Shown one piece after another: positions 35,338 to 60,411 of a DNA stretch of 64,000 nucleotides. How positions within the stretch are numbered: position 1 is the first letter of the stretch; each line of letters begins with the position of its first letter. The notes below the pieces were generated by a model. That model saw nothing but the letters and a program-made list of their open reading frames with translations. It was not told the DNA's origin and ran no database searches. Source of the DNA: Candidatus Aminicenantes bacterium. Lineage in GTDB: Bacteria > Acidobacteriota > Aminicenantia > Aminicenantales > JAFGAV01. The DNA lies in the NCBI GenBank assembly GCA_963705895.1, contig OY970122.1:1634774-1698773 (forward strand), read 5' to 3'. Both the position numbers and the translations under genes were made by a program.

Positions 35338-36492
35338 TTATTTCAAGTTGTAGGAGAAGATAGCGCCTAAGTCTGAAGCACCTCCAAAAATCGTCATTCC
35401 ATACAATGTAGAGCCTTTTATTATTAGTGAACCCAATGGATAGGCTCCATCCGATGGATAGCCGGCAAACCAGTGAAGCAGCGCGAATCCCGTGCCGTTC
35501 GTATTGGTTTTGAATATCGTGCCATAACCGCTGGTGCCGCCCTGATACGTCATTCCGTACAACGTGGAGCCTTTGAGTATCAGTGAAGCCCATGGAAACG
35601 CTCCATCTATTGTGCCGCCGGCAAACGAATGAAGCAGCGCGAACCCGGTGCCTTTCGTATTGATCTTGAATATCGTGCCATCATCACTGGTGCCGCCATA
35701 AGCAGTCATTCCGTACAACGTGGAGCCTTTTAATATCACAGAGACATCTGGATAGGCTCCATCCGATGGATAGCCGGCAAATGAGTGAAGCAGCGCGAAC
35801 CCCGAGCCGTTCGTATTAATCTTGAATATCGTGCCTGCATCACTAGTGCCGCCGTTATGAGTCAATCCGTACAGCGTGGAGCCTTTTAATATCAGCGACC
35901 CATTTGGCGCCAGCCCATCCGATGGATAGCCGGCAAATGAGTGAAGCAGCGCGAACCCCGTGCCGTTCGTATTAATCTTGAATATCGTGCCTGCATCACT
36001 AGTGCCGCCGTTATGAGTCAATCCATACAACGTGGAGCCTTTGACTATCAGCGACCCACGTGGATATCCCCCATCCGATGGGCCGCCGGCAAACGAGTGA
36101 AGCAGCTCGAATTCCGTCCCGTTCGTATTGATTTTAAATATCGTGCCTTCGCCGTAAGCGCCGCCCTCATTCGTCATTCCATATAGCGTGGAGCCTTTGA
36201 GTATCAGTGAACCCCATGGATACGCTCCATCCGTTGTGCCGCCGGCAAAGAAGTGAAGGACAGCGAATCCCGTGCCGTTCGTATTAATCTTGAATATCGT
36301 GCCGTTGTTGCTGGCGCCGCCGAATTCGGTCATTCCATACAACTTGGAGCCTTTTAAGGTCAGTGAGCCTATTGGATCTTCTCCATCCGTTGTGTCGCCG
36401 GCAAACGAGTGAAGCAAGTTGAATTGTGCTTGAAGAGATGTAGCCAGGAAAAACATGAAAAGAAATACCCAACCAAATCGCTTTTTCGACAT
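35338..36492 (-). CDS. Secreted tandem-repeat protein, 7 x ~52-aa repeats (Gloeo_Verruco/'GloVer'-like beta-propeller), paralog A
   Basis: Signal peptide MSKKRFGWVFLFMFFLATSLQAQ, then 7 repeats of LLHSFAGGxSDGxxPxGSLILKGSTLYGMTxxGGTSDxGTIFKINTNGTGF. Confidence 0.8.
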   Translation of the reverse strand: MSKKRFGWVFLFMFFLATSLQAQFNLLHSFAGDTTDGEDPIGSLTLKGSKLYGMTEFGGASNNGTIFKINTNGTGFAVLHFFAGGTTDGAYPWGSLILKGSTLYGMTNEGGAYGEGTIFKINTNGTEFELLHSFAGGPSDGGYPRGSLIVKGSTLYGLTHNGGTSDAGTIFKINTNGTGFALLHSFAGYPSDGLAPNGSLILKGSTLYGLTHNGGTSDAGTIFKINTNGSGFALLHSFAGYPSDGAYPDVSVILKGSTLYGMTAYGGTSDDGTIFKINTKGTGFALLHSFAGGTIDGAFPWASLILKGSTLYGMTYQGGTSGYGTIFKTNTNGTGFALLHWFAGYPSDGAYPLGSLIIKGSTLYGMTIFGGASDLGAIFSYNLK

Positions 36493-36744
36493 TTTTTGTC
36501 CCTCCCTTATGCCCGAACCAGAGGATTTGCTGACCTATTGAAAATAATAATATAGCGGACCGCAAAATAATGTCAAGGCCGGTGGGATTGCAGATTTCAG
36601 AATTTGCAGACGTTTCCCGAACTCAAAATCAGCATGCGAATTCGCAACTTGTTTGTGAACCCGCGAACTCCATCTGCGGACTTCAGCCCCTAAAGTGAAT
36701 CCGTCACAATATGATCTTCTTATGGAATCCTATTGCGGAGGCCT

Positions 36745-37902
36745 TTATTTCAGGCTGTAGGCGAAGATAGCGCCTAAGTCTGAAGCACCTCCATGGATCG
36801 TCATTCCGTACAATGTGGAGCCCTTGAGAATCAGTGACTCATATGGATATTCCCCATCCGATGGGCCGCCGGTAAAGGAGTGAAGCAGCGCGTATCCCGT
36901 GCTGTTCGTATTGATCTTGAATATCGTGCCTAAGTCGCTGCTGCCGCCCCCAAAAGTTATTCCGTAAAACACGGAGCCCTTGAGAATCAGTGACCCCCTT
37001 GGCCCTTCCCCATCCAATGGGCCGCCAGCAAACGAATAAAGCAGCACGAACCCGCTGGCGTTCGTTTTTATCTTGAATAGCGTACCACCGCCGTAGGCGC
37101 CGCTTGAGTAAGTCATTCCGTACAACGCGGAGCCTTTTAATATCAGTGATCCATATGGGATTGCTCCATCCGTAACGCCGCCGGCAAACGAATGAAGCAA
37201 CACGAACCCGCTGCCGTTCGTATTGATCTTGAATATCGTGCCCCAGTTGCTGGTGCCGCCCCCAGAAGTCATTCCGTACAACACAGAGCCCTTGAGAATC
37301 AGTGACTCAAAATATGGATATTTCCCATCTGATGCGCCGCCGGCAAACGAATGAAGCACCGCGAACCCGCTGCCGTTCGTATTGATCTTGAATATCGTAC
37401 CGTTACCAAGAGTGCCGCCGAATTCGGTCATTCCATACAGCGCGGAGCCTTTTAATATCAGTGAGCCTTCTGGACTTGCTCCATCCGACGCGCCGCCGGC
37501 AAACGAATGAAGCAACACGAACCCGCTGCCGTTCGTATTGACCTTGAATATCGTACCACCGCCGTAGGCGCCGCCTGAGTAAGTCATTCCGTACAATGTG
37601 GAGCCCTTGAGAATAAGTGACCCATATGGCTCGCTCCCATCCGATGCGCCCCCGGCAAACGAATGAAGCAGCACGAACCCGGTGCCGTTCGTATTGACCT
37701 TGAATATCGTACCACCGCCGTAGGTGCCGCCATGATATGTCATTCCGTACATTGTGGAGCCCTTAAGAATCAGTGACCCGAACGGATATTGCCCATCCGC
37801 TGTGGCGCCGGCAAACGAGTGAAGCAAGTTGATTTGTGCCTGAAGAGATGCAGCCAGGAAAAACAGGAAAAGAAATACCCAGCCAAATTGCTTTTTCAAC
37901 AT
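36745..37902 (-). CDS. Secreted 7-repeat GloVer-like protein, paralog B
   Basis: Same architecture (MLKKQFGWVFLFLFFLAASLQAQ plus 7 repeats). Confidence 0.8.
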   Translation of the reverse strand: MLKKQFGWVFLFLFFLAASLQAQINLLHSFAGATADGQYPFGSLILKGSTMYGMTYHGGTYGGGTIFKVNTNGTGFVLLHSFAGGASDGSEPYGSLILKGSTLYGMTYSGGAYGGGTIFKVNTNGSGFVLLHSFAGGASDGASPEGSLILKGSALYGMTEFGGTLGNGTIFKINTNGSGFAVLHSFAGGASDGKYPYFESLILKGSVLYGMTSGGGTSNWGTIFKINTNGSGFVLLHSFAGGVTDGAIPYGSLILKGSALYGMTYSSGAYGGGTLFKIKTNASGFVLLYSFAGGPLDGEGPRGSLILKGSVFYGITFGGGSSDLGTIFKINTNSTGYALLHSFTGGPSDGEYPYESLILKGSTLYGMTIHGGASDLGAIFAYSLK

Positions 37903-38272
37903 TTTTTGTCCCTCCCTTATGCCCGAATTATGGGCTTTGCCATTAGTAATACAGCCGACCGCAAAACAATGTCAAGGCCGGGGGAAGGCCCGGGACGTGC
38001 CAGGTTCAGACTCCTCCCTCAGTTGAGCGGGCCGGGTTACCCTTGAAAAGTTGGCTTCATTTAAGAGGACCTTAGGCCTCCTGACCTTTTCTCATGGAAG
38101 GCGCCACGATAAGAGAATTGAATTTCCTACCATTCCGATAGACCGCTCAAAAAACGCTTTCCGCTTTCTTTCGGCTTTCATGCTGAAAACGACCTAAAAC
38201 GGCTTAATGCCATTTTGGAGGGGAAAGTCTCCAAGCTATTGATATCAGAAGGAATTAAAGGGAAAAGCGGAT

Positions 38273-38315
38273 TGGGCCTGGCCAGACTCGAACTGGCGAC
38301 CTCCGGATTAGGAAT
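38273..38315 (-). repeat. Partial 3' copy of tRNA-Arg(CCU) (from anticodon loop to 3' end, 43 nt)
   Basis: tgggcctggccagactcgaactggcgacctccggattaggaat is identical to the 3' portion of tRNA-Arg(CCU). Confidence 0.75.
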
Positions 38316-38535
38316 GCACTGCATCAATTCCCTGAAAATACGCTAACTATTTATTTATCATTGAGTTATTCTATTGGACCGTAAGCCTATTTTGGTTCAG
38401 GTGTCAACTTTTTGTCGTGTTGGATCCGGGATTTCTTGCGTTTTTCATTGGAAGCCAAACAGCCAAGAAACTCACATTATGCCTGGACCATTATTTAGGG
38501 ATGAAGTCCTGCTTGGGGCAAACGGTGGTGTCTGT

Positions 38536-40236
38536 TCAGACAATGGCCGGCTTTTGTTCTTTGAGGAGAGGGTTCATGGCATTGGCCAGAACAACAAGAA
38601 TGACACAGCCGATGACGTTAAACCATAAGTAGGGAATTTTCGTGAAAAAATAGCAGGTCAGCACAGCTAGTTCGGCAATGATCGCGGCGATAAATGTTGC
38701 GTTTCCGCCGATCTTCTTAAAATAAAACGCGATGAGAAATATCCCGAGAATCGTCCCGTAGAATAGGGACCCCATGATGTTCACGGCTTCGATCAATGAG
38801 CCGAGGTGGTTCGCGAATTGGGCGAAACCGATGGCGTACAGCCCCCAAAAAATCGTGGCGGCTTTTGACACATGAACATAGTGCCGGTCCGGCGCGTTTC
38901 GCCGGACAAGGCGCTTGTAAATATCGATGACGGTGACGGAGGCCAGGGCATTGAGCTCGGCGGAGGACGCCGACATCGACGCCGAGAGAATCGCGGCCAG
39001 GATCAATCCGACCAGCCCGACTGGCAGATAGCGGGTCACGAAACTCAGGAAGATATAATTCGTGTCGTTCGTCTCAGCCAGGGGATTGTTCTTCTTGATC
39101 AGGCCGATGGCCTCCTGCCGGATACCGGCTTCCGATGCCTTGGTGAGCCGGAGCTTTTCCATGGTGTCGGCCACGTCCTGGTCATTGCGGTTTTCGATGG
39201 CCCCCAGCATCTGCCTCAGTTGGCCCTGCTTCTCCCCGTTCAGCCGCTGGTAGTCCGTCTCGAGTTTGGTGTACGCTCCCGCATAGGCGCCGTTCTTGAC
39301 GTGGGACGTTTCGATCGGGTTGAAGAACAGCGGCGGCGTCACGAACTGATAAAAGACGAAGATCATGGCGCCGATGAAAAGGATGATGAACTGCATGGGG
39401 ACCTTGAACACGCCGTTGGCCAGGAGTCCCAGCCGGCTTTGGGCGACGGACCGCCCTGAAATGTAGCGCTGGACCTGCGACTGGTCCGTCCCGAAGTAGG
39501 ACAGGGCCAGGAAGCCCCCTCCGATGAGGCCCGACCAAAAATTGTAACGGTCGGTCCAGTTGAACGCGAAATTGACGACATTGAGCTTGCCCAGTTTTCC
39601 GGCTAGATGGACGGCGCTCGAAAAGGAAATGTCGGGCGGCAGCCGGCGGAAGATCATGACAAACGCGGCGCCCATTCCCACGGTCACGATGGCCATCTGC
39701 AGGAGATGCGTTTTGCTGACGGCCTCCGTGCCGCCAGAGGCCGTGTAGAGGATAACTAGGCCGCCGATTATGAAAATCGTCAGGCGGAAATCCCAGCCGA
39801 GGATGACGGAGATGATCAGGGCCGGGGCCAAAATCGTGAACCCGGCGGCCAGCCCTCGTTGGATGAGGAAGAGGAGGCTCCCCAGGGCCCGGTTCTTCAG
39901 GTCGAACCGCTGTTCCAGAAGCTCGTAAGCCGTGTAGACCTTGAGTTTATGGAACAAGGGAACGGCCGTGATCGAGAGGATGACCATGGCGATGGGCAAG
40001 CCGAAGTAGAACTGGACAAACCGCATGCCGTCGACGTAGGCCTGGCCGGGCATGGAGAGGAAGGTGATGCCGCTGGCCTGAGTGGCCATGATTGAGATCG
40101 CGACGCCGTACCAGGGGGTCGATTTATTGGCCAGGAAATAGCCGTGCATGTCCTTTTTGCCCCGGGTCTTCCAAACGCCGTAGACGGCCACGAACAGGAG
40201 GAACGAACTCAGGACGACCCAGTCCAGGGGATGCAT
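38536..40236 (-). CDS. Sodium:solute symporter (SSS family)
   Basis: Thirteen-plus hydrophobic segments with SSS-family N-terminal motifs (GYFLANKSTPWYGVAISIMATQASGITFLSMPGQAY). Confidence 0.85.
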   Translation of the reverse strand: MHPLDWVVLSSFLLFVAVYGVWKTRGKKDMHGYFLANKSTPWYGVAISIMATQASGITFLSMPGQAYVDGMRFVQFYFGLPIAMVILSITAVPLFHKLKVYTAYELLEQRFDLKNRALGSLLFLIQRGLAAGFTILAPALIISVILGWDFRLTIFIIGGLVILYTASGGTEAVSKTHLLQMAIVTVGMGAAFVMIFRRLPPDISFSSAVHLAGKLGKLNVVNFAFNWTDRYNFWSGLIGGGFLALSYFGTDQSQVQRYISGRSVAQSRLGLLANGVFKVPMQFIILFIGAMIFVFYQFVTPPLFFNPIETSHVKNGAYAGAYTKLETDYQRLNGEKQGQLRQMLGAIENRNDQDVADTMEKLRLTKASEAGIRQEAIGLIKKNNPLAETNDTNYIFLSFVTRYLPVGLVGLILAAILSASMSASSAELNALASVTVIDIYKRLVRRNAPDRHYVHVSKAATIFWGLYAIGFAQFANHLGSLIEAVNIMGSLFYGTILGIFLIAFYFKKIGGNATFIAAIIAELAVLTCYFFTKIPYLWFNVIGCVILVVLANAMNPLLKEQKPAIV

Positions 40237-40239
40237 GGG

Positions 40240-41361
40240 CTATGATTTCAGGATTTCTTCATAAAAGGATTCATACAGCGGAATGATCTGGTCGGCGTCG
40301 AAGAATTCCTCGGCGCGTTTCCGGGCCTGCGCCCTAAAAAGGGCGTGCCGGGCCGGGTCGCCGAGCAGGGCCACGGCGCTGGCCGCCATGTCCGCGACGT
40401 CGCCGACGGGAAACAGATACCCCGTCTCCCCGTGCGTGATGACCTCGGGCAGGCCGCCGATCGCGGTGGCGATCACCGGGACGCCGCAGTTCATGGCCTC
40501 GAGGGCAGTCAGTCCGAAGCTCTCCTGCTCGCTCGGCAGGAGAAACAGGTCGGCGCAGAGAAAGAGCGGCTCGAGCTGGTCCTGTTCTCCCATGAACTGG
40601 ACGTCGGCGTTGAGCTTCAGTTCACGGACGAGCTGCTGGATGAACAGCCGCTCCGGCCCGTCGCCGATCAGAATGAGCTTGGCCGGGAGGCGTTCGCGGA
40701 CCTGGGCGAAAATGCGCACGACATCGGCGATCCGTTTCACCGGGCGGAAATTGGAGGCGTGCATCAGGATCTTCTCGCCCCGCGGCGCCAGCGCCTCCCT
40801 CGAGCACAGGTCGTGATTCTGCGTGGGCCGAGCGATTTCGACAAAGTTGGGGATGACCCGGATCTCGCGCCGGATGTCGAATTCCTCGACGGTGCGTTGC
40901 ATGAGGTAGCGGGAGACGGCCGTCACGCCGTCGGACTGCTCGATGGCGAACTTGACGACCCGTTGGAAGGACGGGTCGGCGCCGACCAGGGTGATATCCG
41001 TGCCGTGAAGGGTCGTGATCGTTTTCAGACGCTCGGAATTGAGGATCTGCTTGGCCAGGTAGGCGCTCGCGGCGTGGGGCACAGCGTAATGGGCATGGAT
41101 GATGTCCAGGCCGCGGGTCTCCGCGAGCTCGACGAGTTTGGTGACCAGGCTCAACTCGTACGGCGGGTACTTAAACAGCGGATACGTGGAAACCTCGATC
41201 TCGTGGATGAAAATGTTCTGGTAAAACGTGCGCAGGCGAAACGGGGGGGCATAACTGATGATATGGAGCTCGTGACCCTTTTTCGCGAGACCGATGGCCA
41301 ATTCCGAGGCCACGACCCCACTGCCGCCGTGGGTCGGATAGCAGACGATGCCGATTTTCAT
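40240..41361 (-). CDS. bshA: GT4 glycosyltransferase, N-acetyl-alpha-D-glucosaminyl L-malate synthase (BshA)-like
   Basis: The N-terminus MKIGIVCYPTHGGSGVVASELAIGLAKKGHELHIIS closely matches the BshA start. GT4 EX7E region. GAGG RBS before MKIGI. Confidence 0.7.
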   Translation of the reverse strand: MKIGIVCYPTHGGSGVVASELAIGLAKKGHELHIISYAPPFRLRTFYQNIFIHEIEVSTYPLFKYPPYELSLVTKLVELAETRGLDIIHAHYAVPHAASAYLAKQILNSERLKTITTLHGTDITLVGADPSFQRVVKFAIEQSDGVTAVSRYLMQRTVEEFDIRREIRVIPNFVEIARPTQNHDLCSREALAPRGEKILMHASNFRPVKRIADVVRIFAQVRERLPAKLILIGDGPERLFIQQLVRELKLNADVQFMGEQDQLEPLFLCADLFLLPSEQESFGLTALEAMNCGVPVIATAIGGLPEVITHGETGYLFPVGDVADMAASAVALLGDPARHALFRAQARKRAEEFFDADQIIPLYESFYEEILKS

Positions 41362-41369
41362 GCCGGACC

Positions 41370-42107
41370 TCATGGGATTGTCCACAGGTATTCGGGCCCG
41401 AAAAATCCGACGGGGTCCTCCACCCGGATGGCCTCCCGAACCAGGAAGGGCTCGCCGAACTTCGCGCCGATATGGGCGCCGTAGTGCCTGGCCCGGGTCT
41501 CGACGGTGTCGAGAAATTCGGGCCGGCCGATGAGCGTTTCCTCTCCCCCGGATTCGCCCCGGCCCGGGCGGTGGAATTGGGATTCATAGGCCCTGACCGC
41601 CTTCATTTTTTGTTCGTGCGCGTTGGAGATGTCCACGATAAAGGAGGGCGTGAACTCGAACCGGGTCTGGTAATAAATGACCTTGCGGGGCCGGAAGGGA
41701 GGCTCGCCCGTCTCGAGCTTCTTCAGCCCGGCCAGGTAGGCCGCCTGGCGCACGAGATGGGATGTTTGCTCATGGTCCGGGTGACGGTCGACCCAGTAAG
41801 GCGCAAAAACGATTTTCGGCCTGAGGGCGCGCAGGACACCGATGATCTTGAGCTTGTTCTCCCAGGTCCCCTCGACCCGCCCGTCGGGGATGTCCAGCAT
41901 CTCGTGGGCCGTCAAACCCAGGACCTTCGAGGCGTTCGTGAATTCCCGGGCCCGAATCGCGGCGCTGCCCCGAGTCGCCATCTCCCCCTGGGTCAGCACG
42001 ACGACCCCTGTTTTATAGCCCAACCCCGCCAGTTTGACCAACGTGCCGCCGCAGCCGAGCTCGACGTCGTCGGCGTGAGCCCCAAACGCTAAGGCATCCA
42101 AGTCCAT
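41370..42107 (-). CDS. bshB1: LmbE/PIG-L family deacetylase (BshB1-like)
   Basis: LAFGAHADDVELGCGGTL signature of the LmbE deacetylase family. Positioned between bshC and bshA. Confidence 0.65.
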   Translation of the reverse strand: MDLDALAFGAHADDVELGCGGTLVKLAGLGYKTGVVVLTQGEMATRGSAAIRAREFTNASKVLGLTAHEMLDIPDGRVEGTWENKLKIIGVLRALRPKIVFAPYWVDRHPDHEQTSHLVRQAAYLAGLKKLETGEPPFRPRKVIYYQTRFEFTPSFIVDISNAHEQKMKAVRAYESQFHRPGRGESGGEETLIGRPEFLDTVETRARHYGAHIGAKFGEPFLVREAIRVEDPVGFFGPEYLWTIP

Positions 42108-42134
42108 GGCAGTCTCCTTGTCGTGCAATATCCC

Positions 42135-43751
42135 TCACAGGACCAGATACTGATGATCGACGACATCGATCGCGATGGCCTGGTCGAGCTGATCGATGAA
42201 AGCGGCGCCGTACTTTATCAAATACGGCACGATATTGAAAACCCTTTCCTGGAGGTGCCGGTTCGGGAAGAGGTTGTCGACGGCCTTGTGGAGCTGCTGG
42301 ACCGCGATGTCGTTCCGCTTCGTGGCCGCCTGCCCCACTTTTTTTTCCAGAAAGTTCAACTGCAGGTTCATCTTCCCCTTGGCCAGGTCGACGGATTCTG
42401 CGAGCCCGGGATCGAAGGTCAGGATTTCCGACTTCAGGGCGGCGTAGTCCCTCTCGAGTTGATCGCGGACACGGGATAGGGCCCGGCCTACGGAGTCGGG
42501 GATGTCTTCCTTGGTGATGTTCCCGATCGCCCCGCCCGCGTTGCGCCAGAGGTCCGGGACGCTCAGATGATATTTCTTCAGGATGTGGTCGACCTTCCTT
42601 TCGACGATGGTCAGGCTCTTGCGCGGATAGATCACGGGCATCGGCAGTCCGAACGCTTCGTAGACGCCTTTCAGCTGGGCAAAATACGCGATTTCGGAAG
42701 GACCGCCGACATAGGCGACAGTGGGCAAAACGGCATCCTGATAGAGCGGGCGCAGAAGAACATTTGGACTGAACAGGAAGGGCTTTTCTTTGGCCAGCCT
42801 GAGAAGGTCCTCTTTCGTGGCCAAGGACGGAAGGCCTTTGATGTCGAAGGCACCATCTTTCCATTGGATGGCGTGGCGTTCCCGCTCCACGTAGAACTGG
42901 TTGAGGATTCCCGCGTGGAGGGGAATCTGCGCCTCGTATCCGGTCTGGCGCAGCCGCTCCGACGCGGCCAAGGCCTGCCGGGTCGATGGGGAATCTTCGG
43001 CAATCTCGCGATAGAAGACGTCGCGCCCCATCTCTTTCAGGCGAGGATGGCCGGCGTCGATCAGGATCAACCCGCGAGACCTGAACAGCCGCGTCATCCA
43101 GCGGCCGAACGCTTCGACATAGGAGCGGCCGGGCGCGTAGGCCTCGCTCAGGGAGCCCATGATGTCCGCTTTGAATTCCGTGTCCAGGGTCATGCCTTTG
43201 AGTTGCTCGAGGCAATCGGCGACGTCCGGGGGCAACGCGATATTCGAGACGGGGACCTTCGATTCGCGCGGCGGCGACGGACACTGGATTTCCCGGAGCT
43301 GATTGTCCTTGTCCATGAGGGCGATGTGATCGATCTCGGCCAGGTCGTGATCGTCCGAAGCCAGCCAGAATACCGGCACGAAACTTCCGAAACCGCGACG
43401 GTTGAGCACGTCCGCAAGTTTGGTCGCAGTCAGCGCTTTATAGATTGTGTAGAGCGGGCCGGAAAAAAGCCCGGTCTGCTGCCCGGTGACCACGGCGCAG
43501 GCCTCTTCCCGGACGATTCTTTCGATCGCGCCCAGAGTCTCGGGCCCGCAGCCGTAACTTCTATTTTGTTCGGTCAGGACCTCGGCCAGATCTTCCCGGG
43601 CGATTTGGCGCGACCGGACTCTTTCGGCTTGGCGCTCATAGGCGCCGGGGTCCCGAAAGTCGCCGTTATAGAACTCGCGCACCTTGCCGTGGTCATAGAC
43701 ATAGTCATCAGCCAGAGGCGGCAGAGGCGGATGCCGGATCGTCTCCGTCAT
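42135..43751 (-). CDS. bshC: Bacillithiol biosynthesis cysteine-adding enzyme BshC-like
   Basis: 538-aa protein of the BshC/YllA family, judged from length and N-terminal pattern (AREDLAEVLTEQNRSYGCG). Cotranscribed with the bshB1/bshA-like genes. Confidence 0.65.
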   Translation of the reverse strand: MTETIRHPPLPPLADDYVYDHGKVREFYNGDFRDPGAYERQAERVRSRQIAREDLAEVLTEQNRSYGCGPETLGAIERIVREEACAVVTGQQTGLFSGPLYTIYKALTATKLADVLNRRGFGSFVPVFWLASDDHDLAEIDHIALMDKDNQLREIQCPSPPRESKVPVSNIALPPDVADCLEQLKGMTLDTEFKADIMGSLSEAYAPGRSYVEAFGRWMTRLFRSRGLILIDAGHPRLKEMGRDVFYREIAEDSPSTRQALAASERLRQTGYEAQIPLHAGILNQFYVERERHAIQWKDGAFDIKGLPSLATKEDLLRLAKEKPFLFSPNVLLRPLYQDAVLPTVAYVGGPSEIAYFAQLKGVYEAFGLPMPVIYPRKSLTIVERKVDHILKKYHLSVPDLWRNAGGAIGNITKEDIPDSVGRALSRVRDQLERDYAALKSEILTFDPGLAESVDLAKGKMNLQLNFLEKKVGQAATKRNDIAVQQLHKAVDNLFPNRHLQERVFNIVPYLIKYGAAFIDQLDQAIAIDVVDHQYLVL

Positions 43752-46388: not shown

Positions 46389-46434
46389 CGCGTCTGCGCC
46401 TCAGGAACGCCGTCCCGGGAATCCTGCCCGCGGG

Positions 46435-47105: not shown

Positions 47106-49580
<2,475 letters not shown>

Positions 49581-50072: not shown

Positions 50073-52049
50073 ATGCCGGAAGAGATACAAAACAAAGTCC
50101 GCCGGAATAACAAATTCCTTTTAGTCGCCCTTGTCGCGATGTTAGGTCTGTCCACGGCATTTTTTAGGCTGGGCTCCAAAGGCTTATGGGGCGATGAAGT
50201 CTGGCAGGTCTATTGGTCTCAACAACAATCTTTTTGGCAGACGCTCGCACGCTTTACGATATTTAACGAAGCGAATAGCCTTCGCCATCTAAGCGATAGC
50301 AAGCTCCCCGTCCTGGTGACGAGCGTCGATAACTATCCGCTGCATTTTCTTTGGACGCATCTCACCACCAAGCTCGGGACAAGTGAATTCTGGGCCCGGT
50401 TCCCTTCGGCGTTTCTCGGCGCAGCCAGCGTTCTAATTATGTTCCTGCTCGGCCGCAAGCTGTTCGGGCAAAGAGCCGGGCTCACGGCGGCCGTGCTTAT
50501 GGCTCTTGCACCTTATCATGTCTGGTATGCCCAAGATGCCCGGCCCTATTCCGCGCTAGTCTTTTATTCGTTGCTATCCCTTTATTTTTTTGCGGAGATT
50601 CTGGAGCGGCCTTCGTGGAAAGCCTGGCTGGGTTTTGTGCTGGCGACAACCCTGAACTTCTATAATCATATGCTGGCATCTTTGCCTTTTATTACGGAAT
50701 TGATGGTCAGCGCAGGGATAGGAATAATCTGGTGGCTACGAGCTCGATCTACAAAGCTGCAGACTGATGTTTCAGAACGCCACAAGATCCGGAGGTCCTT
50801 GTGGATGGCTTGGAGCGGCCTTTTCGTTGCGGCCGTCATCGCTCTTCCCGTCCTCGCAAAAGCGATTATTCTCATCAAACTCCAGGGCCTTGTGCCGGGC
50901 CAAAACACGCGTTTTCAGTTGACATCTCAGTTCCTGGGAAGTCTGTTTAGTTCCTTCGGGGCAGGGAACGGGACACTTTTATGGGCGTTCATTTTGTTGT
51001 CGATTATTGGATTGGGAACGGCGTTGTTCCGCCGTCCTTGGTTTGGGATCTTGACCTTAGTTTGGATAGCATTTCCATTAGTCTCTCTCGGGATAATGCA
51101 GCCGCGCCGCGTCGTTCCCTTGCGCTACCTTCTTTTTATCCAACCGCTTTATCTTCTGACGATTGCTTTGGGATGTCACAGGGTCATAGAAGCATTGGGC
51201 CGTCTCAAGGATATTGTGTTGCCCAAGATGTCCTTGGGGAGCAAGGTCTGGAGTTGGATGCCGACCGGCATTGTCGTGAGCGTTATTTTTTTCACCGTGT
51301 TCCCCCTGACATGGAAAGGTTACAGGGTCGAGAAGATCAACGATTGGAGCGGGCTATGTTCTTACTTGCACTGCCGGGTTGAACAGGGCGACATCATTGT
51401 CGGAGAAGATTATGCATCTTACGTTATGGACTGGAGCTACAGAAAAAGAAACGGCGTCGCCCTTGTTAGACCGGACCGCTATTCTCTGGATGAATTGAGA
51501 GACATGGGCCGGAATGTCTGGTATCTCGCTTTAGATGACCATCCCCCGTATACGCGGGCCGCTTTCTTGCAGAGGAACTTCGAGGAAACTCCTAAGTCCG
51601 CCTATGCCAAATCGGACTTGCTGCCTCCCGATTATAACTGCGGCGGCCGGATATTTTTCCCCAATTTCGAACTACCGGTGAGACTTTACAGTCACAAAGC
51701 GGCATTTGCACCATCACTGATAGAATTCAAGGACTGGCCCGGTTCCAAGAATTGGCCGAATTACGTCCTAATCGAACCCAGGGATCACTATGACGTTGTC
51801 CTTCGTCTGCCGGCAGCCGCTTCCAGAATCCTATTGATCACTATGTGGGATTTTGTGGAAAGAGATCTAGTCCTGTATCTCAATGACAGGCTGATCGGCG
51901 CGATCAAGGCGGGCAAGAGCGGCGGCCGATGGGTTACTTTTCGCTTTCCGCTTTCCCCCTCCGACCCCGATACGTTTCTGCTGAAAATGATGAATCCCGG
52001 TTCGAAGGTTTCCTGCGTCAGCAGGGTCGAAGTCCAATATGCCCAGTGA
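50073..52049 (+). CDS. Polytopic membrane glycosyltransferase of the GT39/GT83 (PMT/ArnT-like) superfamily
   Basis: N-terminal ~400 aa with 10+ TM segments in a PMT_2/ArnT-like pattern (LGSKGLWGDEVWQVYWS...), then a soluble C-terminal domain. Start chosen at ATG 50073 (the upstream start in the track is TTG). Confidence 0.6.
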   Translation: MPEEIQNKVRRNNKFLLVALVAMLGLSTAFFRLGSKGLWGDEVWQVYWSQQQSFWQTLARFTIFNEANSLRHLSDSKLPVLVTSVDNYPLHFLWTHLTTKLGTSEFWARFPSAFLGAASVLIMFLLGRKLFGQRAGLTAAVLMALAPYHVWYAQDARPYSALVFYSLLSLYFFAEILERPSWKAWLGFVLATTLNFYNHMLASLPFITELMVSAGIGIIWWLRARSTKLQTDVSERHKIRRSLWMAWSGLFVAAVIALPVLAKAIILIKLQGLVPGQNTRFQLTSQFLGSLFSSFGAGNGTLLWAFILLSIIGLGTALFRRPWFGILTLVWIAFPLVSLGIMQPRRVVPLRYLLFIQPLYLLTIALGCHRVIEALGRLKDIVLPKMSLGSKVWSWMPTGIVVSVIFFTVFPLTWKGYRVEKINDWSGLCSYLHCRVEQGDIIVGEDYASYVMDWSYRKRNGVALVRPDRYSLDELRDMGRNVWYLALDDHPPYTRAAFLQRNFEETPKSAYAKSDLLPPDYNCGGRIFFPNFELPVRLYSHKAAFAPSLIEFKDWPGSKNWPNYVLIEPRDHYDVVLRLPAAASRILLITMWDFVERDLVLYLNDRLIGAIKAGKSGGRWVTFRFPLSPSDPDTFLLKMMNPGSKVSCVSRVEVQYAQ

Positions 52050-52145
52050 TCGCTCGGCTACCCCCTTATCGTCTCAATTCCCGCCACTCTTGGCCTGCAT
52101 CGAATTATTTACAGGCATGGCCTTTGGACTAGCAATCCGGGGGCC
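52050..52145 (+). repeat. Tail-repeat copy X (internal ~95-nt portion)
   Basis: cgtctcaattcccgccact...ttacaggcatggcctttggact matches 60625-60700. Confidence 0.55.
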
Positions 52146-52227
52146 GCTTGAATTGCTACAAAACGACACCATGGACATGCTATGGTAAAGATATGGTCAA
52201 TTTAGGGAATTCGAGATATGCCAGGTC

Positions 52228-52256
52228 TTGACATTTTCTTGTGGCCCGGCATATTA
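52228..52256 (+). promoter_or_regulatory. Conserved sigma70-like promoter of the repeat-protein cassette (also at ~54679, ~56045, ~57462, ~59170, and on the minus strand upstream of 36492 and 37902)
   Basis: TTGACA, 17 nt, ATATTA/TATTAT. Followed by a ~50-nt conserved 5'UTR (aatcaatagggcgatcaagctt...) and a GGGGAGGG RBS before ATG. Confidence 0.45.
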
Positions 52257-52311
52257 TTTTAATCAATAGGGCGATCAAGCTTATAATTTAAGCAAAGGGG
52301 AGGGAAAATCA

Positions 52312-53484
52312 ATGTCGAAAAAGCGATTTGGGTGGGTATTTCTTTTGCTGTTCTTCCTGGCTGCATCTCTTCAAGCACAAATCAACTTGCTTCATTCGTT
52401 TGCCGGGGCCACATCGGATGGAGCACATCCATGGGGTTCACTGATATTCAAAGGCTCCACGTTGTACGGAATGACTTCGCATGGCGGCACGAGCGACAAC
52501 GGCACGATATTCAAGACCAACACGAACGGCACGAAGTTCGCCGTGCTTCACGCGTTTGCCGGCGGCGCTGCTGATGGAGCAATTCCATGCGACTCATTGA
52601 TTCTCAAAGGCTCCACATTGTACGGGATGACTGAACGTGGCGGCCCCAGCGACCTAGGTACGATATTCAAGGTCAATACAAACGGCGCAGGGTTCGCGCT
52701 GCTTCATTCCTTTGCTGGGGGCGCATCCGATGGATCCCTTCCATCTATGGCGAATCTGATTCTCAAAGGCTCCACATTGTACGGAATGACCCCGTATGGC
52801 GGCACGAACGGCAACGGAACAATATTTAGGATTAATACGAATGGCAAGGGATTTGAGCTGCTTCACTCGTTTGCCGGGGGCGTAACAGACGGACAATTTC
52901 CAGAAGGTTCACTGATATTAAGCCGCTCCACATTGTACGGCACGACTCATAACGGCGGCTCCTCTTACAACGGCACGATATTCAAGGTCAATACGGACGG
53001 CAGTGGGTTCATGCTGCTTCACTCGTTTACCGGGGCCACATCGGATGGAGCGTATCCATGGCGTTCACTGCTACTTAAAGGCTCCACGTTGTATGGAATA
53101 ACAATGGACGGCGGCATCAATGATCTCGGCACGGTATTCAAGGTCAATACGAACGGCACTGGGTTCGTGCTGCTTCATTCGTTTGCTGGCGGCGCATCAG
53201 ATGGGAAATATCCATTAGGATCACTGATTCTTAGAGGCTCGATATTGTACGGAATGACCCCGGACGGCGGTACCAATGATATGGGCACGATATTTATTAT
53301 CAACACGGACGGCACGGGATTCGATTTAATTTATTCCTTCGCCGGCTATCCATCGGATGGAGCCTATCCTTATGGGTCACTGATAGAAAAGGGCGTCAAG
53401 TTCTACGGAATAACTTATGGGGGAGGCGCTTCAGATAATGGCGTCATCTTCTCCTATAGCCTGAAATATGGACCTGCGAAATAG
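52312..53484 (+). CDS. Secreted 7-repeat GloVer-like protein, paralog C
   Basis: MSKKRFGWVFLLLFFLAASLQAQ plus 7 repeats. Ends with a short extension (SYSLKYGPAK). Confidence 0.8.
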   Translation: MSKKRFGWVFLLLFFLAASLQAQINLLHSFAGATSDGAHPWGSLIFKGSTLYGMTSHGGTSDNGTIFKTNTNGTKFAVLHAFAGGAADGAIPCDSLILKGSTLYGMTERGGPSDLGTIFKVNTNGAGFALLHSFAGGASDGSLPSMANLILKGSTLYGMTPYGGTNGNGTIFRINTNGKGFELLHSFAGGVTDGQFPEGSLILSRSTLYGTTHNGGSSYNGTIFKVNTDGSGFMLLHSFTGATSDGAYPWRSLLLKGSTLYGITMDGGINDLGTVFKVNTNGTGFVLLHSFAGGASDGKYPLGSLILRGSILYGMTPDGGTNDMGTIFIINTDGTGFDLIYSFAGYPSDGAYPYGSLIEKGVKFYGITYGGGASDNGVIFSYSLKYGPAK

Positions 53485-53639
53485 GATTTCCTAAGAGAAT
53501 CCTATCGTGACGAACTCGGCCCCAGGGGTATAGCCCGCAGAGGCAGTTCGTAGATAGAACGAATTTACAGACCGAATTAGAGTTTGGCAAGTGTCCGCAA
53601 ATTCAGAATTCTGAAATTTCACCACCAACCCCTCTCTTC

Positions 53640-54672
53640 TAAAACTGACAGACATGGTTTACACGTTGGGCTTTCTTTTATAGGCTTATTTCGATTAGCA
53701 AAGGAGAAGCCCCATGGTCAGCTACGATCCCGTCAAAAATCAAAGATGGCGTCTGGGTATCATGCGTCATTATGAGGAGCTGGGTCATAATGCTTCGAAG
53801 ACATGTCGATACTTTGGGATCAGTCGATGCGCTTTTTATAGATGGCGGAGGAGATATCTTGAGCTCGGAGAGCAGGGTCTCTTGGACCGTTCTCGTAGAC
53901 CTATCCGTAGCCCCAGGGCAACGAGACCCGAGATCATCGGCAAGATTATCTATCTGAGGCAAACCTATCATTTTGGACCATGGAAGATCATGGTTTATCT
54001 TGAACGCTATCACGATATGCATGTCAGCAGCTCCGGGATCTGGAGGATCCTTAAGAAACTTCAGATGAATCGCCTACCTTCAAATCAGCGCTATGCAAGG
54101 CACTCGGAACGCTGGAAGAGATACGAGAAGCCCATGCCCGGGCACAGAGTTCAGGTAGATGTTAAATTTTTGGAGAAGATACCGGGCGCCAGGAAACGGT
54201 ACTACCAATATACAGCGATTGACGATTGCACCAGGCTCCGCGTTTTAAGGATTTATGAAAATAATACCCAGAAATCTGCGATTCAGTTTATTGATTATGC
54301 CCTGTCGCGCTTACCCTTTAGGACCGAAGTGGTCCAAACAGATAATGGCTCCGAGTTTCAAGGGCAGTTCCATTGGCATGTTCTCGATAAGGGGATAAAT
54401 CATGTATATATAAAACCACGTCGACCTAGATTGAATGGGAAGGTTGAACGAAGTCATCGGATTGACGAGGAGGAGTTTTATCGAATGCTGAATGGGGTCG
54501 TCATCGACGATTCGGGTCTATTCAACGAGAAGCTGAGGGAATGGGAAGACTTCTACAACTACGATCGGCCCCATTCGGCACTAGGGGGAAAGACCCCTTA
54601 TGAACGCTTTCGCGAAAGAGTCGGGCTCGAGTGTAACCAATCATGATCAGTCCTACACAACCTTGACATTAT
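53640..54672 (+). mobile_element. IS481-family insertion sequence (approximate ends)
   Basis: Single transposase ORF with imperfect terminal inverted repeats (GACAGACATGGTTTACAC / rc GATCATGATTGGTTACAC). Inserted in the conserved spacer between paralogs C and D. A possible short target duplication (CAACC) lies at both junctions. Confidence 0.55.
53714..54646 (+). CDS. IS481-family transposase (HTH plus DDE integrase core)
   Basis: N-terminal HTH (CRYFGISRCAFYRWRRRY), then the rve core with D...D...E (QVDVKF...QTDNGSEF...RSHRIDEEEF). Confidence 0.85.
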   Translation: MVSYDPVKNQRWRLGIMRHYEELGHNASKTCRYFGISRCAFYRWRRRYLELGEQGLLDRSRRPIRSPRATRPEIIGKIIYLRQTYHFGPWKIMVYLERYHDMHVSSSGIWRILKKLQMNRLPSNQRYARHSERWKRYEKPMPGHRVQVDVKFLEKIPGARKRYYQYTAIDDCTRLRVLRIYENNTQKSAIQFIDYALSRLPFRTEVVQTDNGSEFQGQFHWHVLDKGINHVYIKPRRPRLNGKVERSHRIDEEEFYRMLNGVVIDDSGLFNEKLREWEDFYNYDRPHSALGGKTPYERFRERVGLECNQS

Positions 54673-54745
54673 TATGCGGCCCAACATATTATTTTTATCA
54701 ATAGGGCGATAAAGCTTATTATTTAGGCCTTAAGGAGGGGAATCG

Positions 54746-55891
54746 ATGTCGAAAAAGCGATTTGGCTGGGTTTTTCTTTTCCTGTTTTTCCTGGTTACAT
54801 CTCTTCAGGCACAAATCAACCTACTTCACTCGTTTGCCGGCGGCGCTACGGATGGAGCCTACCCAGCAGGCTCACTGATATTAAAGGGCTCCACGTTATA
54901 CGGAATGACATCTAATGGCGGCACCAGCAACTTTGGCATGATATTCAAGATCAACACGAACGGCACCGGGTTCGCACTGCTTCACTCGTTTGCCGGCGGC
55001 GCTACGGATGGAGACTACCCAGAAGGCTCACTGATATTAAAAGGCTCCACATTGTATGGAATGACCGTAGGAGGCGGTCCCTATGACTACGGTACGATAT
55101 TCAAGATCAATACGAACGGCACCGGGTTCGTGCTGCTTCACTCGTTTGCCGGCGGCGCTACGGATGGAGAGTACCCAAAAGGCTCACTGATATTAAAAGG
55201 CTCCGTGTTGTACGGAATGACGAATGGCGGCGGCAGCAGCGATGTAGGCACGTTATTCAAGATCAATAGGAACGGCAGCGAGTTTGTGCTGCTTCATTCG
55301 TTTGCCGGCGCAGCAGACGGAGCAAGTCCATGTGATTCACTGATATTAAAAGGCTCCGCGTTGTACGGAATGACTGAAATCGGTGGCACCAGCAACTGGG
55401 GCACGATATTCAAGATCAATACGAACGGCAGCGGGTTCGCGCTGCTTCACACGTTTACCGGGACCGCATCCGATGGGCAAATGCCATATGGGTCGCTAAT
55501 TCTCAAAGGCTCTGCGATGTACGGAATCACCCAATACGGCGGCGCCTCTGGGGATGGCGCGATATTCAAGATCAATACAAACGGCACGGGGTTCGTGCTG
55601 CTTCACTCCTTTATCGGCACGGATGGACTGTATCCATTTGGATCACCGATTATCAAAGGCTCCACGTTGTACGGGATGGCATGGAACGGCGGCGCCAGCA
55701 GCTTTGGCACGATATTCAAGATGAACAAAGACGGCACGGGATTCGTGCTGCTTCACTCATTTGCCGGGGCCACATCGGATGGAGCGTATCCCCATGGATC
55801 ACTGATACTCAAGGGTTCCACGTTGTACGGAATGACGAATGTGGGAGGGGCTTCAAATAAAGGCGCTATCCTCTCCTACAACCTGAAATAA
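54746..55891 (+). CDS. Secreted 7-repeat GloVer-like protein, paralog D
   Basis: Same signal peptide and repeat architecture. Confidence 0.8.
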   Translation: MSKKRFGWVFLFLFFLVTSLQAQINLLHSFAGGATDGAYPAGSLILKGSTLYGMTSNGGTSNFGMIFKINTNGTGFALLHSFAGGATDGDYPEGSLILKGSTLYGMTVGGGPYDYGTIFKINTNGTGFVLLHSFAGGATDGEYPKGSLILKGSVLYGMTNGGGSSDVGTLFKINRNGSEFVLLHSFAGAADGASPCDSLILKGSALYGMTEIGGTSNWGTIFKINTNGSGFALLHTFTGTASDGQMPYGSLILKGSAMYGITQYGGASGDGAIFKINTNGTGFVLLHSFIGTDGLYPFGSPIIKGSTLYGMAWNGGASSFGTIFKMNKDGTGFVLLHSFAGATSDGAYPHGSLILKGSTLYGMTNVGGASNKGAILSYNLK

Positions 55892-56134
55892 AGGCGCACG
55901 AAATAGCATTCCATAGAAAATCATATTGTGGCAAATTCGCCCTTGGGGCTATAGTCCGCAGAGGTAGTTAATAGACAGAACGAACTTGCAGACCGAATTC
56001 AAGTCCGGGATGCGTTTGCAAATTCAGCATTCTGCAATTTCCCCACCAGCCTTGACATTATTTTTCGGGCCGACATATTATTTCAATCAATAGGGCGATA
56101 AAGCTTATTATTTAAGCATTAAGGAGGGGAATAG

Positions 56135-57292: not shown

Positions 57293-57418
57293 AGGCGCAC
57301 GAAATAGCATTCCATTAGAAAATCATATTGTGACAAATTCGCCCCTTGGGCTATAGTCCGCAGAGGCAGTTCGCAGACAGAACGAACTTGCAGACCGAAT
57401 TCGAGTTTGGCAAGTATC

Positions 57419-57436
57419 CGCAAATTCTGAAGTTTG
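57419..57436 (+). promoter_or_regulatory. Palindromic operator-like site GCAAATTCTGAAGTTTGC upstream of the cassette promoter (variants at ~53600 and ~56020, and on the minus strand at ~36570)
   Basis: Imperfect 18-nt inverted repeat ~25 nt upstream of the -35. The 53600 copy carries the perfect palindrome TCAGAATTCTGA. Confidence 0.35.
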
Positions 57437-57535
57437 CAATCTCCCCCGGCCTTGACATTATTTTGCGGCCCGGCATATTATTTTAATCAATAGGGCGATC
57501 AAGCTAATAATTTAAGCAAAGGGGAGGGAAAATCA

Positions 57536-58693: not shown

Positions 58694-59045
58694 AGGCCAT
58701 CGAAATAGGATTCCATAAGAGAATCATATCGTGACGGATTCGCCCCCGGAGTTGTAGTTCGTAACTAGAGCTCGTCCCCTTTTTTAGGGCGATCAAAATT
58801 CTGTGCCCGCTTGATAGATAGAATAGGGCCGTCCCGCCTCACCTGGCGGTCTCCCCCAGGCCTCAAATGATGAGCAGAACGGAACGGCCCCAGATAGGCC
58901 CCGGCCCGTCTCATTTCCCGCCATTTTCGCTATTTACCAGCCTTTTTACAGGCTTGCCCCGCGGACTAGCTATCCGCCGGCCAGCGGAAAATTGCCCCCG
59001 GTCTTTAACTCTTCCTGGTTTTTCTCATAATATCTGGACCGATTT
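58694..59045 (+). repeat. Tail-repeat copy Y (~350 nt, full)
   Basis: Aligns along its length with 60412-60775. Ends ...ctggaccgatttgaagtagggg. Confidence 0.65.
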
Positions 59046-59253
59046 GAAGTAGGGGCAATCACTTGTCAAGGACAGCTCGGGGGCGATTTGATAGAGGCCC
59101 GGCTAAACTTCCGCCCGTTTTGTTGTCTATAGATGGCAAATGATTATCCCGCCCGTCGAGCAAAGCCTGAAGCGCTTGACATCGTCTTCTTTTTGGCATA
59201 TTAATTCAGCCAAAGAGCGGCAAAACTCAACCAAAACAAAGGAGAAAAACGAA

Positions 59254-60411
59254 ATGTCGAAAAAGCGATTTGGGTGGATATTTCTTTTCATGTTTTTCCT
59301 GGCTGCATCTCTTCAAGCACAAATCAACTTGCTTCACTCGTTTGCCGGCGGCGCTACGGATGGGAAGTACCCATATGCGGCGCCAGTATTAAAAGGTTCC
59401 ATGCTGTATGGAGTGACAATTAATGGCGGCACCAGCGACCTAGGCACGATATTTGCGATTAATACGAACGGCACGGGATTCGTTGTGCTTCACTCATTCG
59501 CCGGCGGGGCATCAGATGGCGCAGATCCGTTGGGCTCGTTGATATTAAAAGGCTCCACGTTGTATGGGATGACTTCGGGGGGCGGCACCTACAGCTATGG
59601 CACGATATTCAAGGTCAATACGAACGGCACGGGATTCGCGCTGCTTCACACGTTTACCGGCGGCGCATCGGATGGAGCAGGTCCATATGGCTCGCTGATA
59701 TTAAAAGGCTCCGCGTTGTACGGGATGACTTATATCGGCGGCAGCGCTGCATATGGCACGATATTTAAGATCAATACGAACGGTACGGGATTCGCGCTGC
59801 TTCACACGTTTATCGGCGGCGCATCGGATGGGAAATACCCATTTTTTGCGTCATTGATTCTCAAAGGCTCCGTGTTGTACGGAATGACGCAAAAGGGCGG
59901 CAGCAGTGATGATGGCACGATATTTAAGATCAATACGAACGGCACGGGATTCGCGCTGCTTCACACGTTTATCGGCGGCGCATCGGATGGGAAATACCCG
60001 TACGGGTCACTGAGAGCCAAAGGCTCTGCCTTGTACGGAATGACATTCGGGGGCGGCACCAGCGACTCAGGTACGATATTCAAGGTCAACACGAGCGGGA
60101 CGTTATTCGCGCTGCTCCACTCGTTCGCCGGCGGTGCATCGGATGGGAAATCTCCAATTGGGTCACTGGTCCTTAAAGGCTCCAAAATATACGGAATGAC
60201 CGAAAAAGGCGGCAATAGCGACCTAGGCACGATATTCACGATCACGACGGTCGGCACGGGATTCGAGCTCATTCATTCGTTTGCCGGTGGCGCATCGGAT
60301 GGAGCGGTTCCAAATGGCTCGCTGATATTAAAAGGCTCCGCGTTGTTCGGAACGGCGAATGGGGGAGGGGCTTCAAACTACGGCGTGATATTCTCCCTCA
60401 GCTTGAAATAA
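59254..60411 (+). CDS. Secreted 7-repeat GloVer-like protein, paralog G
   Basis: Start at ATG 59254 (MSKKRFGWIFLF), with an AAGGAG RBS. The upstream in-frame extension in the ORF track is rejected. Confidence 0.8.
   Translation: MSKKRFGWIFLFMFFLAASLQAQINLLHSFAGGATDGKYPYAAPVLKGSMLYGVTINGGTSDLGTIFAINTNGTGFVVLHSFAGGASDGADPLGSLILKGSTLYGMTSGGGTYSYGTIFKVNTNGTGFALLHTFTGGASDGAGPYGSLILKGSALYGMTYIGGSAAYGTIFKINTNGTGFALLHTFIGGASDGKYPFFASLILKGSVLYGMTQKGGSSDDGTIFKINTNGTGFALLHTFIGGASDGKYPYGSLRAKGSALYGMTFGGGTSDSGTIFKVNTSGTLFALLHSFAGGASDGKSPIGSLVLKGSKIYGMTEKGGNSDLGTIFTITTVGTGFELIHSFAGGASDGAVPNGSLILKGSALFGTANGGGASNYGVIFSLSLK

Follow-up and report, generated by a model that had tools for sequence, protein, structure and literature searches.

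What could keep a family of neighboring bacterial genes nearly uniform over most of each protein while a few positions change almost to saturation? The question is raised by a 64,000-nucleotide (nt) window of a Candidatus Aminicenantes contig (OY970122.1, assembly GCA_963705895.1), which carries seven paralogous genes of the GloVer repeat family (TIGR03803/Gloeo_Verruco) in two opposed arrays. The answer that we favor, with a probability of roughly 0.55, is that these genes encode a repertoire of exported, single-propeller binding proteins in which one face has been diversified by selection and the scaffold kept uniform. Such proteins would most likely be periplasmic or extracellular and lectin-, adhesin- or receptor-like. 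All seven open reading frames (ORFs) were located where an earlier reading of this DNA, made from the letters alone (the sequence-only reading), had placed them, two on the minus and five on the plus strand. Positions are numbered over the whole window, and the suffix m in a gene name denotes the minus strand.

35338-36492, minus strand: G1m, GloVer paralog of 384 amino acids (aa) with putative signal peptide and seven blades; TIGR03803 score 274 bits
36745-37902, minus strand: G2m, GloVer paralog of 385 aa
52312-53484, plus strand: G3, GloVer paralog of 390 aa with a C-terminal extension of 5 aa (YGPAK); TIGR03803 score 268 bits
54746-55891, plus strand: G4, GloVer paralog of 381 aa, the protein whose structure was modeled; TIGR03803 score 265 bits
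56135-57292, plus strand: G5, GloVer paralog of 385 aa
57536-58693, plus strand: G6, GloVer paralog of 385 aa
59254-60411, plus strand: G7, GloVer paralog of 385 aa with the conserved ATG at 59254; the mechanical ORF runs from 59140

The proteins are 381-390 aa long. All seven have the common N-terminus that had been described from the sequence (MSKKRFGW...SLQAQ; here MSKKRFGWVFLF...SLQAQ) followed by seven repeats with a period of 52 aa, occasionally 50-53, the last of which is shortened to 47 aa. They stop 0-5 aa past blade 7 with no C-terminal domain or tail, which bears out the earlier remark that a C-terminal sorting signal is lacking. The G7 start at 59254 is common to the paralogs and to database protein P0029 (the 385-aa form). 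Pairwise identity among the seven was 64-74% for protein and 72-78% for DNA in a star-like pattern; to judge from their sequences, the paralogs are not recent duplicates. A family of seven members, as first described, was an underestimate. Database protein P0001 is 100% identical to G4, six other listed proteins correspond to the remaining window genes, and one and the same longest contig, of 3,311,678 nt, is on record for these seven and for at least 12 further paralogs. At least 19 GloVer family members therefore appear to lie on one 3.31-Mb contig. By its BshC homologues, the best of which are 98%, 93%, and 89% identical, the organism is Candidatus Aminicenantales-like. One paralog (P0057) has six blades, and P0100, from the same genome, carries DUF11.

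Variation along the repeat was not uniform; it was concentrated at the x positions of the consensus, as the sequence-only reading had proposed. Each blade has six hypervariable positions (DG-x-x-P-x, MT-x-x-GG, and SD-x-G), giving 42 per protein, with an entropy of 2.8-3.6 bits and a proportion of nonsynonymous differences (pN) of 0.55-0.71 (overall pN 0.63). For the 29 scaffold positions pN was 0.06 and the synonymous proportion (pS) 0.36. After Jukes-Cantor (JC) correction, dN at hypervariable positions was 1.39 versus a scaffold dS of 0.50, a ratio of 2.8 with a bootstrap range of 2.2-3.6 that fell to 1 or below in 0 of 2000 bootstraps. Codon positions 1 and 2 of the hypervariable codons had diverged by d = 1.47 versus d = 0.37 at four-fold sites (about 4-fold), and intergenic identity of 59-64% corresponded to a d of about 0.5-0.6. 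That the hypervariable codons are near saturation when synonymous sites are about half-way to equilibrium is the main argument for diversifying selection at the six positions, which these sequence comparisons suggest. Four paralogs (M2, M3, M4, and M6; 72-82% aa identity) of a younger array on a related metagenome contig (L008) gave a ratio of 1.2-2.1 in six of six pairs. Among 18 paralogs of the genome, the hypervariable residues were 21% Tyr and 5% Trp, and Glu, Gln, and Asn were also enriched.

The proteins belong to a family that was already known, though unstudied in the literature searched. When the TIGR03803 profile was run against three of the paralogs, it returned 265.2, 274.2, and 268 bits, far above the cut-off of 44, with seven matched stretches each, and the GloVer identity suspected from the sequence was thereby confirmed. 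No Pfam model matched the GloVer paralogs, and no domain besides the GloVer repeats was found. The repeat had been supposed to be rare, which it is not: matches at E<=1e-3 come from 50,650 representative clusters (at 50% identity), and those at E<=1e-30 from 14,628, giant multi-propeller proteins included. The window proteins resemble the TIGR03803/Gloeo_Verruco "choice-of-anchor" proteins in the repeat, the putative N-terminal export signal and the consensus LLHSFxGGxxDGxxPxGSLxxxGxxLYGMTxxGGxxxxGTIFKI. Many of these relatives carry PEP-CTERM (PF07589), a T9SS tail (PF18962), DUF11 (PF01345 among the homologue domains) or FG-GAP/VCBS domains, whereas the window proteins have no C-terminal sorting or anchor domain and are minimal single propellers in tandem arrays. 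A C-terminal anchor is typical of the TIGR03803 family and is not demanded by the model.

An AlphaFold2 model of G4, built from a 48-sequence alignment (pLDDT 91.8, pTM 0.88), contains 28 strands, four per repeat. In the model, seven four-stranded antiparallel blades are closed into a ring, the seven-bladed beta-propeller that the repeat count had suggested. By DSSP of this model, the six hypervariable positions begin strand 1, end strand 2 or come immediately ahead of strand 3, which puts them in the strand 4-to-strand 1 and strand 2-to-strand 3 connections. In a four-stranded antiparallel meander these two kinds of connection share one face. All six positions would then lie on one face of the predicted propeller, with the invariant KGS and NTNGTGF turns on the opposite one. 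The Protein Data Bank (PDB) held no sequence homologue at E<=1. The exported seven-bladed propellers YncE of E. coli (3vgz), Lp49 of Leptospira (3bws), and Vgb of S. aureus (2z2n) are 13-15% identical with no detectable sequence homology; unlike the window proteins, they are not encoded in multigene arrays and their blades are not internally repetitive. The N-terminus has a K/R-rich n-region, a 14-15-residue hydrophobic core, an LQA/Q c-region and no lipobox Cys, and residues 2-18 of the G4 model form a helix of low pLDDT. These features point to Sec export of the GloVer propellers, and in a diderm cell the default destination of an exported protein is the periplasm.

The scaffold between the hypervariable positions is uniform at the codon level. 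Between different genes, mean nt identity among the seven blades was 0.74 when the blade position matched and 0.71 when it did not; within a gene it was 0.72. Blades 1-6 were 0.72-0.76 identical whatever their position or gene, and only the truncated blade 7 was set apart. Where residues were identical, codon identity was 0.69 versus 0.38 expected from family codon usage. Codon choice was column-specific: depending on the column, Leu was CTT (40/42), CTG (32/38) or TTG (28/36), Ile was ATA (38/38), Pro was CCA (35/42), and Gly, in two separate columns, was GGA (35/42) and GGC (38/39), respectively. By the same measure, codon identity was 0.47 within L008, 0.46 within L007 (a second related metagenome contig, with a single GloVer copy) and 0.43-0.49 between those arrays and the window, and the dominant codon differed between the window and the related arrays in 10 of 25 columns. 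The terminal blade 7 had a lower codon identity (0.55), as expected for unequal crossing-over.

The L007 protein shares with the window proteins the seven-blade architecture, the putative signal peptide, a special last blade and the blade starts (25, 77, 129, 181, 234, 286, and 338), including the 53-aa fourth blade found in G2m and G7. It follows that the seven-blade architecture is older than the split and that homogenization of the window genome's blades came later. To judge from the sequences, this lineage-specific homogenization could be due to exchange of blade units or to re-amplification from one blade. Exact tracts of 42-63 nt occur at offsets of 156, 159, and 315 nt within G1m, G2m, G5, and G7; blades 3 and 4 of G1m, for example, share exact tracts of 63 and 46 nt at the 156-nt offset. 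Together with the six-bladed P0057, these within-gene tracts look like signs of ongoing blade exchange. The longest exact tract between genes is at most 60 nt, and that between the opposed arrays is 55 nt; most of the exchange is seen inside genes. An inverted repeat, ACGAAC-N8-GTTCG, occurs in about half of the blades within the codons for T-N-G-x-G-F (e.g., 37046-37065, 55112-55131, and 53149-53168), with 39 strand-matches where chance would give 1.2; the repeat may result from codon choice or may promote blade exchange.

Each gene is preceded by a promoter-like site, a leader and a Shine-Dalgarno sequence. The arrangement TTGACA-18-TATTAT, with 11 of 12 positions matched, stands ahead of five of the seven genes (G1m, G3, G4, G5, and G6), and the -10 boxes are weaker in G2m (TATTAC) and G7 (TATTAA). 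Next come a leader of about 45-55 nt and a GGGAGGG-type Shine-Dalgarno sequence that is degenerate in G7.

52228-52311, plus strand: G3 promoter-like site TTGACA-18-TATTAT, leader of about 45-55 nt and Shine-Dalgarno sequence GGGGAGGG
54663-54745, plus strand: G4 promoter-like site, leader and Shine-Dalgarno sequence; the -35 box abuts the right end of an IS481-family element
56052-56134, plus strand: G5 promoter-like site, leader and Shine-Dalgarno sequence
57452-57535, plus strand: G6 promoter-like site, leader and Shine-Dalgarno sequence
59176-59253, plus strand: G7 divergent promoter-like site TTGACA-N17-TATTAA, leader and weak Shine-Dalgarno sequence AAGGAGAAA
36493-36576, minus strand: G1m promoter-like site TTGACA-18-TATTAT, leader and Shine-Dalgarno sequence
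37903-37975, minus strand: G2m promoter-like site TTGACA-18-TATTAC, shortened leader and Shine-Dalgarno sequence
55892-56050, plus strand: 3' intergenic module of about 150 nt, with copies after G3 (53485-53629), G5 (57293-57450), and G2m (36586-36744)

The cassettes had been called near-identical. They are homologous and share promoter, leader and Shine-Dalgarno sequence, but their mean pairwise identity over 105 nt of promoter and 5' untranslated region (5'UTR) is only 64% (range 45-88%). The first 45-60 nt of the 3' module also follow G6 and G7. Because the 3' module is shared as well, the tandem unit, spaced at about 1.4 kb, is the whole of promoter, coding sequence and 3' block. The 3' module has some predicted stems with little covariation and no canonical terminator. 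For the 5'UTR hairpin, RNAalifold predicted four pairs at -1.35 kcal/mol with weak covariation, and an Rfam search at gathering thresholds found nothing within the arrays. No GloVer fragments or promoterless copies were found in the window outside the seven genes. With a sigma-70-like promoter and a Shine-Dalgarno sequence of its own on each gene, the copies look like a co-expressed repertoire rather than an active gene with silent donors.

A short putative hairpin precedes the Shine-Dalgarno sequence by 5-10 nt (52258-52311, 54693-54745, and equivalents; about 2600-2668 in L007), with stems that differ (GCTTA/TAAGC and GCCC/GGGC; GTCC/GGAC in L007). A repeated 77-nt element (69-83% identical) is found at the left edge of the plus-strand array (52070-52146), in the long G6-G7 spacer (58907-58983) and past G7 (60620-60696), as well as at 49889-49953 and 60708-60773. 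About 350 nt of 3' flank are common to G6 and G7 (80% identical), which suggests that the G7 unit was duplicated along with its flank.

The same gene-unit layout was found in the relatives. L008 has at least seven tandem genes of 384-385 aa and a 383-aa copy about 1.8 kb upstream, and each arrayed gene has TTGAC(T/A)-N17-TAnnnT and GGAGGGG arranged as in the window; the single L007 gene has this layout too. The ortholog scan of metagenomes gave a best match of 59% identity, and the scan of genome contigs found only relatives at 37-41% identity. In the L008 array (3364-11516), blades are differentiated by position (e.g., blade 2 has SETNG and blade 6 has TYDLKTN) and differences among the paralogs are almost confined to the six hypervariable positions, the opposite balance from that of the window genome. 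For selection tests, L008 is the cleaner data set.

A mechanism that would tie these observations together begins with a lineage-specific expansion of anchor-less, Sec-exported, seven-bladed GloVer propellers, in which each gene would be its own transcription unit and the copies would form a co-expressed repertoire. Blade units of 156 nt would be exchanged or re-amplified by unequal crossing-over or gene conversion, leaving a scaffold uniform down to its synonymous codons. Six codons per blade, on a Tyr/Trp-rich face, would meanwhile be driven to near saturation, the face being a ligand-contact surface diversified by selection from variable targets.

Several points weigh against the interpretation as selected binders. 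Within the hypervariable codons dN/dS was 0.74-0.9 and did not exceed 1, since nonsynonymous and synonymous changes alike have reached saturation; positive selection was therefore deduced from the comparison between site classes and not from a site model. Of the positive selection proposed in the sequence-only reading, what stands is the rate excess over scaffold synonymous and four-fold sites. The rate excess also presumes that synonymous sites of the scaffold are neutral and not preferentially homogenized. The same x positions are variable across the whole GloVer family, and part of the pattern is thus plain loop freedom. The assignment of the six positions to one face was drawn only from strand topology and DSSP, and Sec export only from inspection of the N-terminus. 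The further paralogs, at least 12 in number, were examined as protein sequences. In the literature searched, TIGR03803, Gloeo_Verruco and GloVer-containing had zero occurrences, and neither a structural, functional or evolutionary study under these names nor an experimentally characterized homologue was found.

The strongest alternative is neutral loop drift on a recently re-amplified scaffold. In this view a new propeller, built up from one blade, would have been duplicated into many genes in this lineage, the six positions would be surface loops free of constraint, and the exported proteins would serve structural or housekeeping ends without any diversified role in binding. We consider it possible, though distinctly less probable than selection for binding. 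Amplification of new propellers out of single blades goes on continuously in every lineage (Pereira and Lupas, 2022; PMC9218822), all blades in the window are equidistant, and both the within-codon ratio and the family-wide variability of the x positions fit drift. Drift predicts, however, that hypervariable dN equals synonymous or intergenic divergence, whereas it was 2.8-4 times greater in the window and 1.2-2.1 times greater in L008. The blade 7 and blade-start pattern shared with L007 speaks for a seven-blade architecture older than the homogenization, and enrichment of Tyr and Trp is typical of binding surfaces.

A role in catalysis, as exported propellers of the lyase, alkylase or hydrolase type in which the variable face would adjust specificity for substrates, is unlikely. 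The proteins share only about 15% sequence identity with such enzymes, with no sequence homologue in the PDB at the threshold given above, and no Pfam or NCBIfam enzyme family was matched. The invariant residues, for the most part Gly, Phe, Tyr, Leu, and Pro together with the Asp of the DG motif, are alike in every blade, as is typical of a scaffold and not of a single catalytic center.

Antigenic or receptor variation, by inversion between the opposed arrays or gene conversion among copies, had been the explanation offered in the sequence-only reading, and it is now very improbable. Two inverted arrays of homologous genes, a 55-nt perfect shared tract that exceeds the length usually needed by RecA, and the intragenic exchange of blades speak for it. 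Against it, seven of seven copies have their own promoter and Shine-Dalgarno sequence, the window holds no promoterless donor cassettes or fragments, and no invertase or invertible-promoter architecture was found near the arrays, the sole integrase found being that of a tRNA-Ala island. The paralogs have only 72-78% DNA identity and no long recent conversion tract between the arrays, the proteins are without a surface anchor, and about 14 kb of genes with conserved counterparts in relatives would be turned around by an inversion. At that identity and tract length, inversion of the arrays is a formal possibility only, and switching is not supported.

Least credible of all is targeted hypermutation by a diversity-generating retroelement (DGR) or an unidentified mutator: it would account for divergence so sharply localized to specific codons amid conserved sequence, but the hypervariable codons vary at all three codon positions and their consensus codons are not AAY, which excludes adenine-specific DGR mutagenesis, no reverse transcriptase was found among the scanned window ORFs, the window has no template-repeat-like extra copy, and we know of no mechanism that addresses 42 separate three-nucleotide targets per gene. 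Within the window, the DGR, silent-cassette and invertible-promoter models were rejected on the codon-position variation, the lack of fragments and the lack of invertase architecture.

For a repertoire of selected binders, the closest documented mechanism, by analogy, is that of the fungal HNWD WD40 family. The ten paralogs of this family in Podospora anserina (het-d/het-e/het-r and nwd) evolve in concert, both inside single genes and from gene to gene, and positive selection acts on four surface positions of each repeat (Paoletti et al., 2007, PMC1805685; Dyrka et al., 2014, PMC4986451). Both systems have multigene, seven-blade-type propeller repeats that are homogenized within and between paralogs, few hypervariable positions per repeat, and a variable number of repeats; these positions map to the interaction face in HNWD and would do so in the window proteins. 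The repeat families are unrelated (GloVer versus WD40), and the HNWD proteins are intracellular NLR/STAND proteins with NACHT and effector domains, whereas those of the window appear to be exported, stand-alone propellers of a bacterial host. Internal nt conservation is about 72-76% in the window versus more than 85% in HNWD, and the window system has no repeat-induced point mutation (RIP). Positive selection has been shown for HNWD; for the window it is suggested by a cross-class rate comparison, not by site models.

The comparison can be taken further, as a tentative proposal. The arrays might be a bacterial extracytoplasmic counterpart of the fungal HNWD repertoire and of repertoires of the vertebrate variable lymphocyte receptor (VLR) type: a germline-encoded library of secreted binders, about 20 genes in an uncultured Aminicenantes lineage, for recognition of non-self, prey, phage or substrate. 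Dedicated repeat exchange would keep a single scaffold uniform over dozens of blades, and selection would push 42 paratope-like positions per protein apart. Bacterial propellers that have been recently amplified (PMC9218822; PDB 2ymu) are mostly single genes with near-identical blades, whereas the window has a whole paralog family with one homogenized blade type and defined hypervariable codons. Both the evolutionary mode and the array organization appear to be new. The locus gives a family of more than 50,000 clusters a testable hypothesis, that of a seven-bladed propeller with one conserved face and one hypervariable, Tyr/Trp-rich face that has expanded into arrays and evolves through homogenization of its blades combined with diversification. 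If the hypothesis is true, concerted evolution plus diversifying selection, documented so far in NLR-type propellers inside fungal and cyanobacterial cells, would also be a mode of evolution of proteins that bacteria export, and the family would be a natural consensus-scaffold binder library.

The arrays lie in a flexible part of the genome. Their GC content is 49-52% compared with about 60% around them, and three copies of a tRNA-Arg sequence accompany them.

63054-63129, minus strand: intact tRNA-Arg(CCT)
38273-38315, minus strand: exact 43-nt repeat of tRNA-Arg from the anticodon loop to the 3' end, just upstream of the minus-strand array
35148-35179, minus strand: exact 32-nt repeat of the 3' end of tRNA-Arg, with CCA after it, just downstream of the minus-strand array

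Exactly three sites in the window carry the 32-nt repeat (63054, 38273, and 35148), all in direct orientation. These att-like repeats bracket the two-gene minus-strand array, and the whole segment of 35.1-63.1 kb lies behind the tRNA. For the copies at 63054 and 38273, similarity extends over about 30 nt of downstream sequence. The ORFs of 60.4-63.05 kb, next to the tRNA-Arg, contain no integrase domain.

Between the arrays is a block from a Ser/Thr kinase to an SSF transporter (38.5-49.6 kb; including bshA, bshB, bshC, PIG-L, and DUF2911) that is conserved in relatives. One related contig (L009) is 96.6% identical in nt over 38493-47097, with homology stopping at 38493 and 49579, and a second (L011) is 86% identical over 38569-49579, with homology ending at both limits. 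Unrelated genes flank the block on both sides in these two contigs, where neither GloVer arrays nor tRNA fragments were found. Ancient paralogs, syntenic in all relatives, would have told against the sequence-only reading by its own account, and the absence of the arrays from these flanks is the contrary of that. Since the arrays are absent beside a conserved block, they belong to the flexible genome and stand at synteny breakpoints. The bracketed segment encloses a conserved core (38.5-49.6 kb) and is thus no simple tRNA island. The tRNA-Arg repeats may record tandem accretion, a remnant like a cis-mobilizable element (CIME) or a rearrangement. The splitting of one ancestral array by a single inversion was considered, but no single inversion simplifies the three repeats; nor did one simple integration account for the present order. 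At the edge of the block, a Ser/Thr kinase-TPR gene (47106-49580, minus strand) has 75% DNA identity to its L009 counterpart next to 8.6 kb at 96.6%; by this comparison, either the gene has diverged far more than its neighbors or its allele has been replaced.

Two further features lie within or beside the plus-strand array.

53630-54656, plus strand: IS481-family element with a transposase ORF at 53714-54646 (NF033577, 264 bits; cut-off 224)
50022-52049, plus strand: PMT_2/GT-C-type membrane glycosyltransferase of 675 aa, directly upstream of G3 in the same low-GC segment

The insertion element, which the sequence-only reading had missed, splits the G3-G4 spacer with a putative 5-nt target duplication (CAACC). 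Since its right end abuts the -35 hexamer of G4, it may alter expression of that gene. An N-G-T/S motif is conserved in each blade, and the PMT_2 neighbor is absent from L007 and L008; a glycosylation link between this enzyme and the array would be pure speculation. PADLOC returned no hits for the GloVer protein or its neighbors. Between the plus-strand array and the tRNA-Arg, a 468-aa ORF (61154-62560, minus strand) has a signal-peptide-like N-terminus and no Pfam or PADLOC match, and a 495-aa ORF that overlaps it on the opposite strand is probably spurious.

A second mobile region (10597-29372; GC 51-56%) is found at a tRNA-Ala(GGC) gene (29297-29372), with fragments resembling the tRNA-Ala 3' end at 20830-20863 and 10597-10632. 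It contains int-alpA RNA motifs (19295-19359 and 29075-29141), a tyrosine integrase (20893-21981), an AAA_25 protein, two Ser/Thr kinases and a seven-repeat ankyrin protein that matches the PADLOC candidate PDC-M72A, and it looks like a set of tandem islands.

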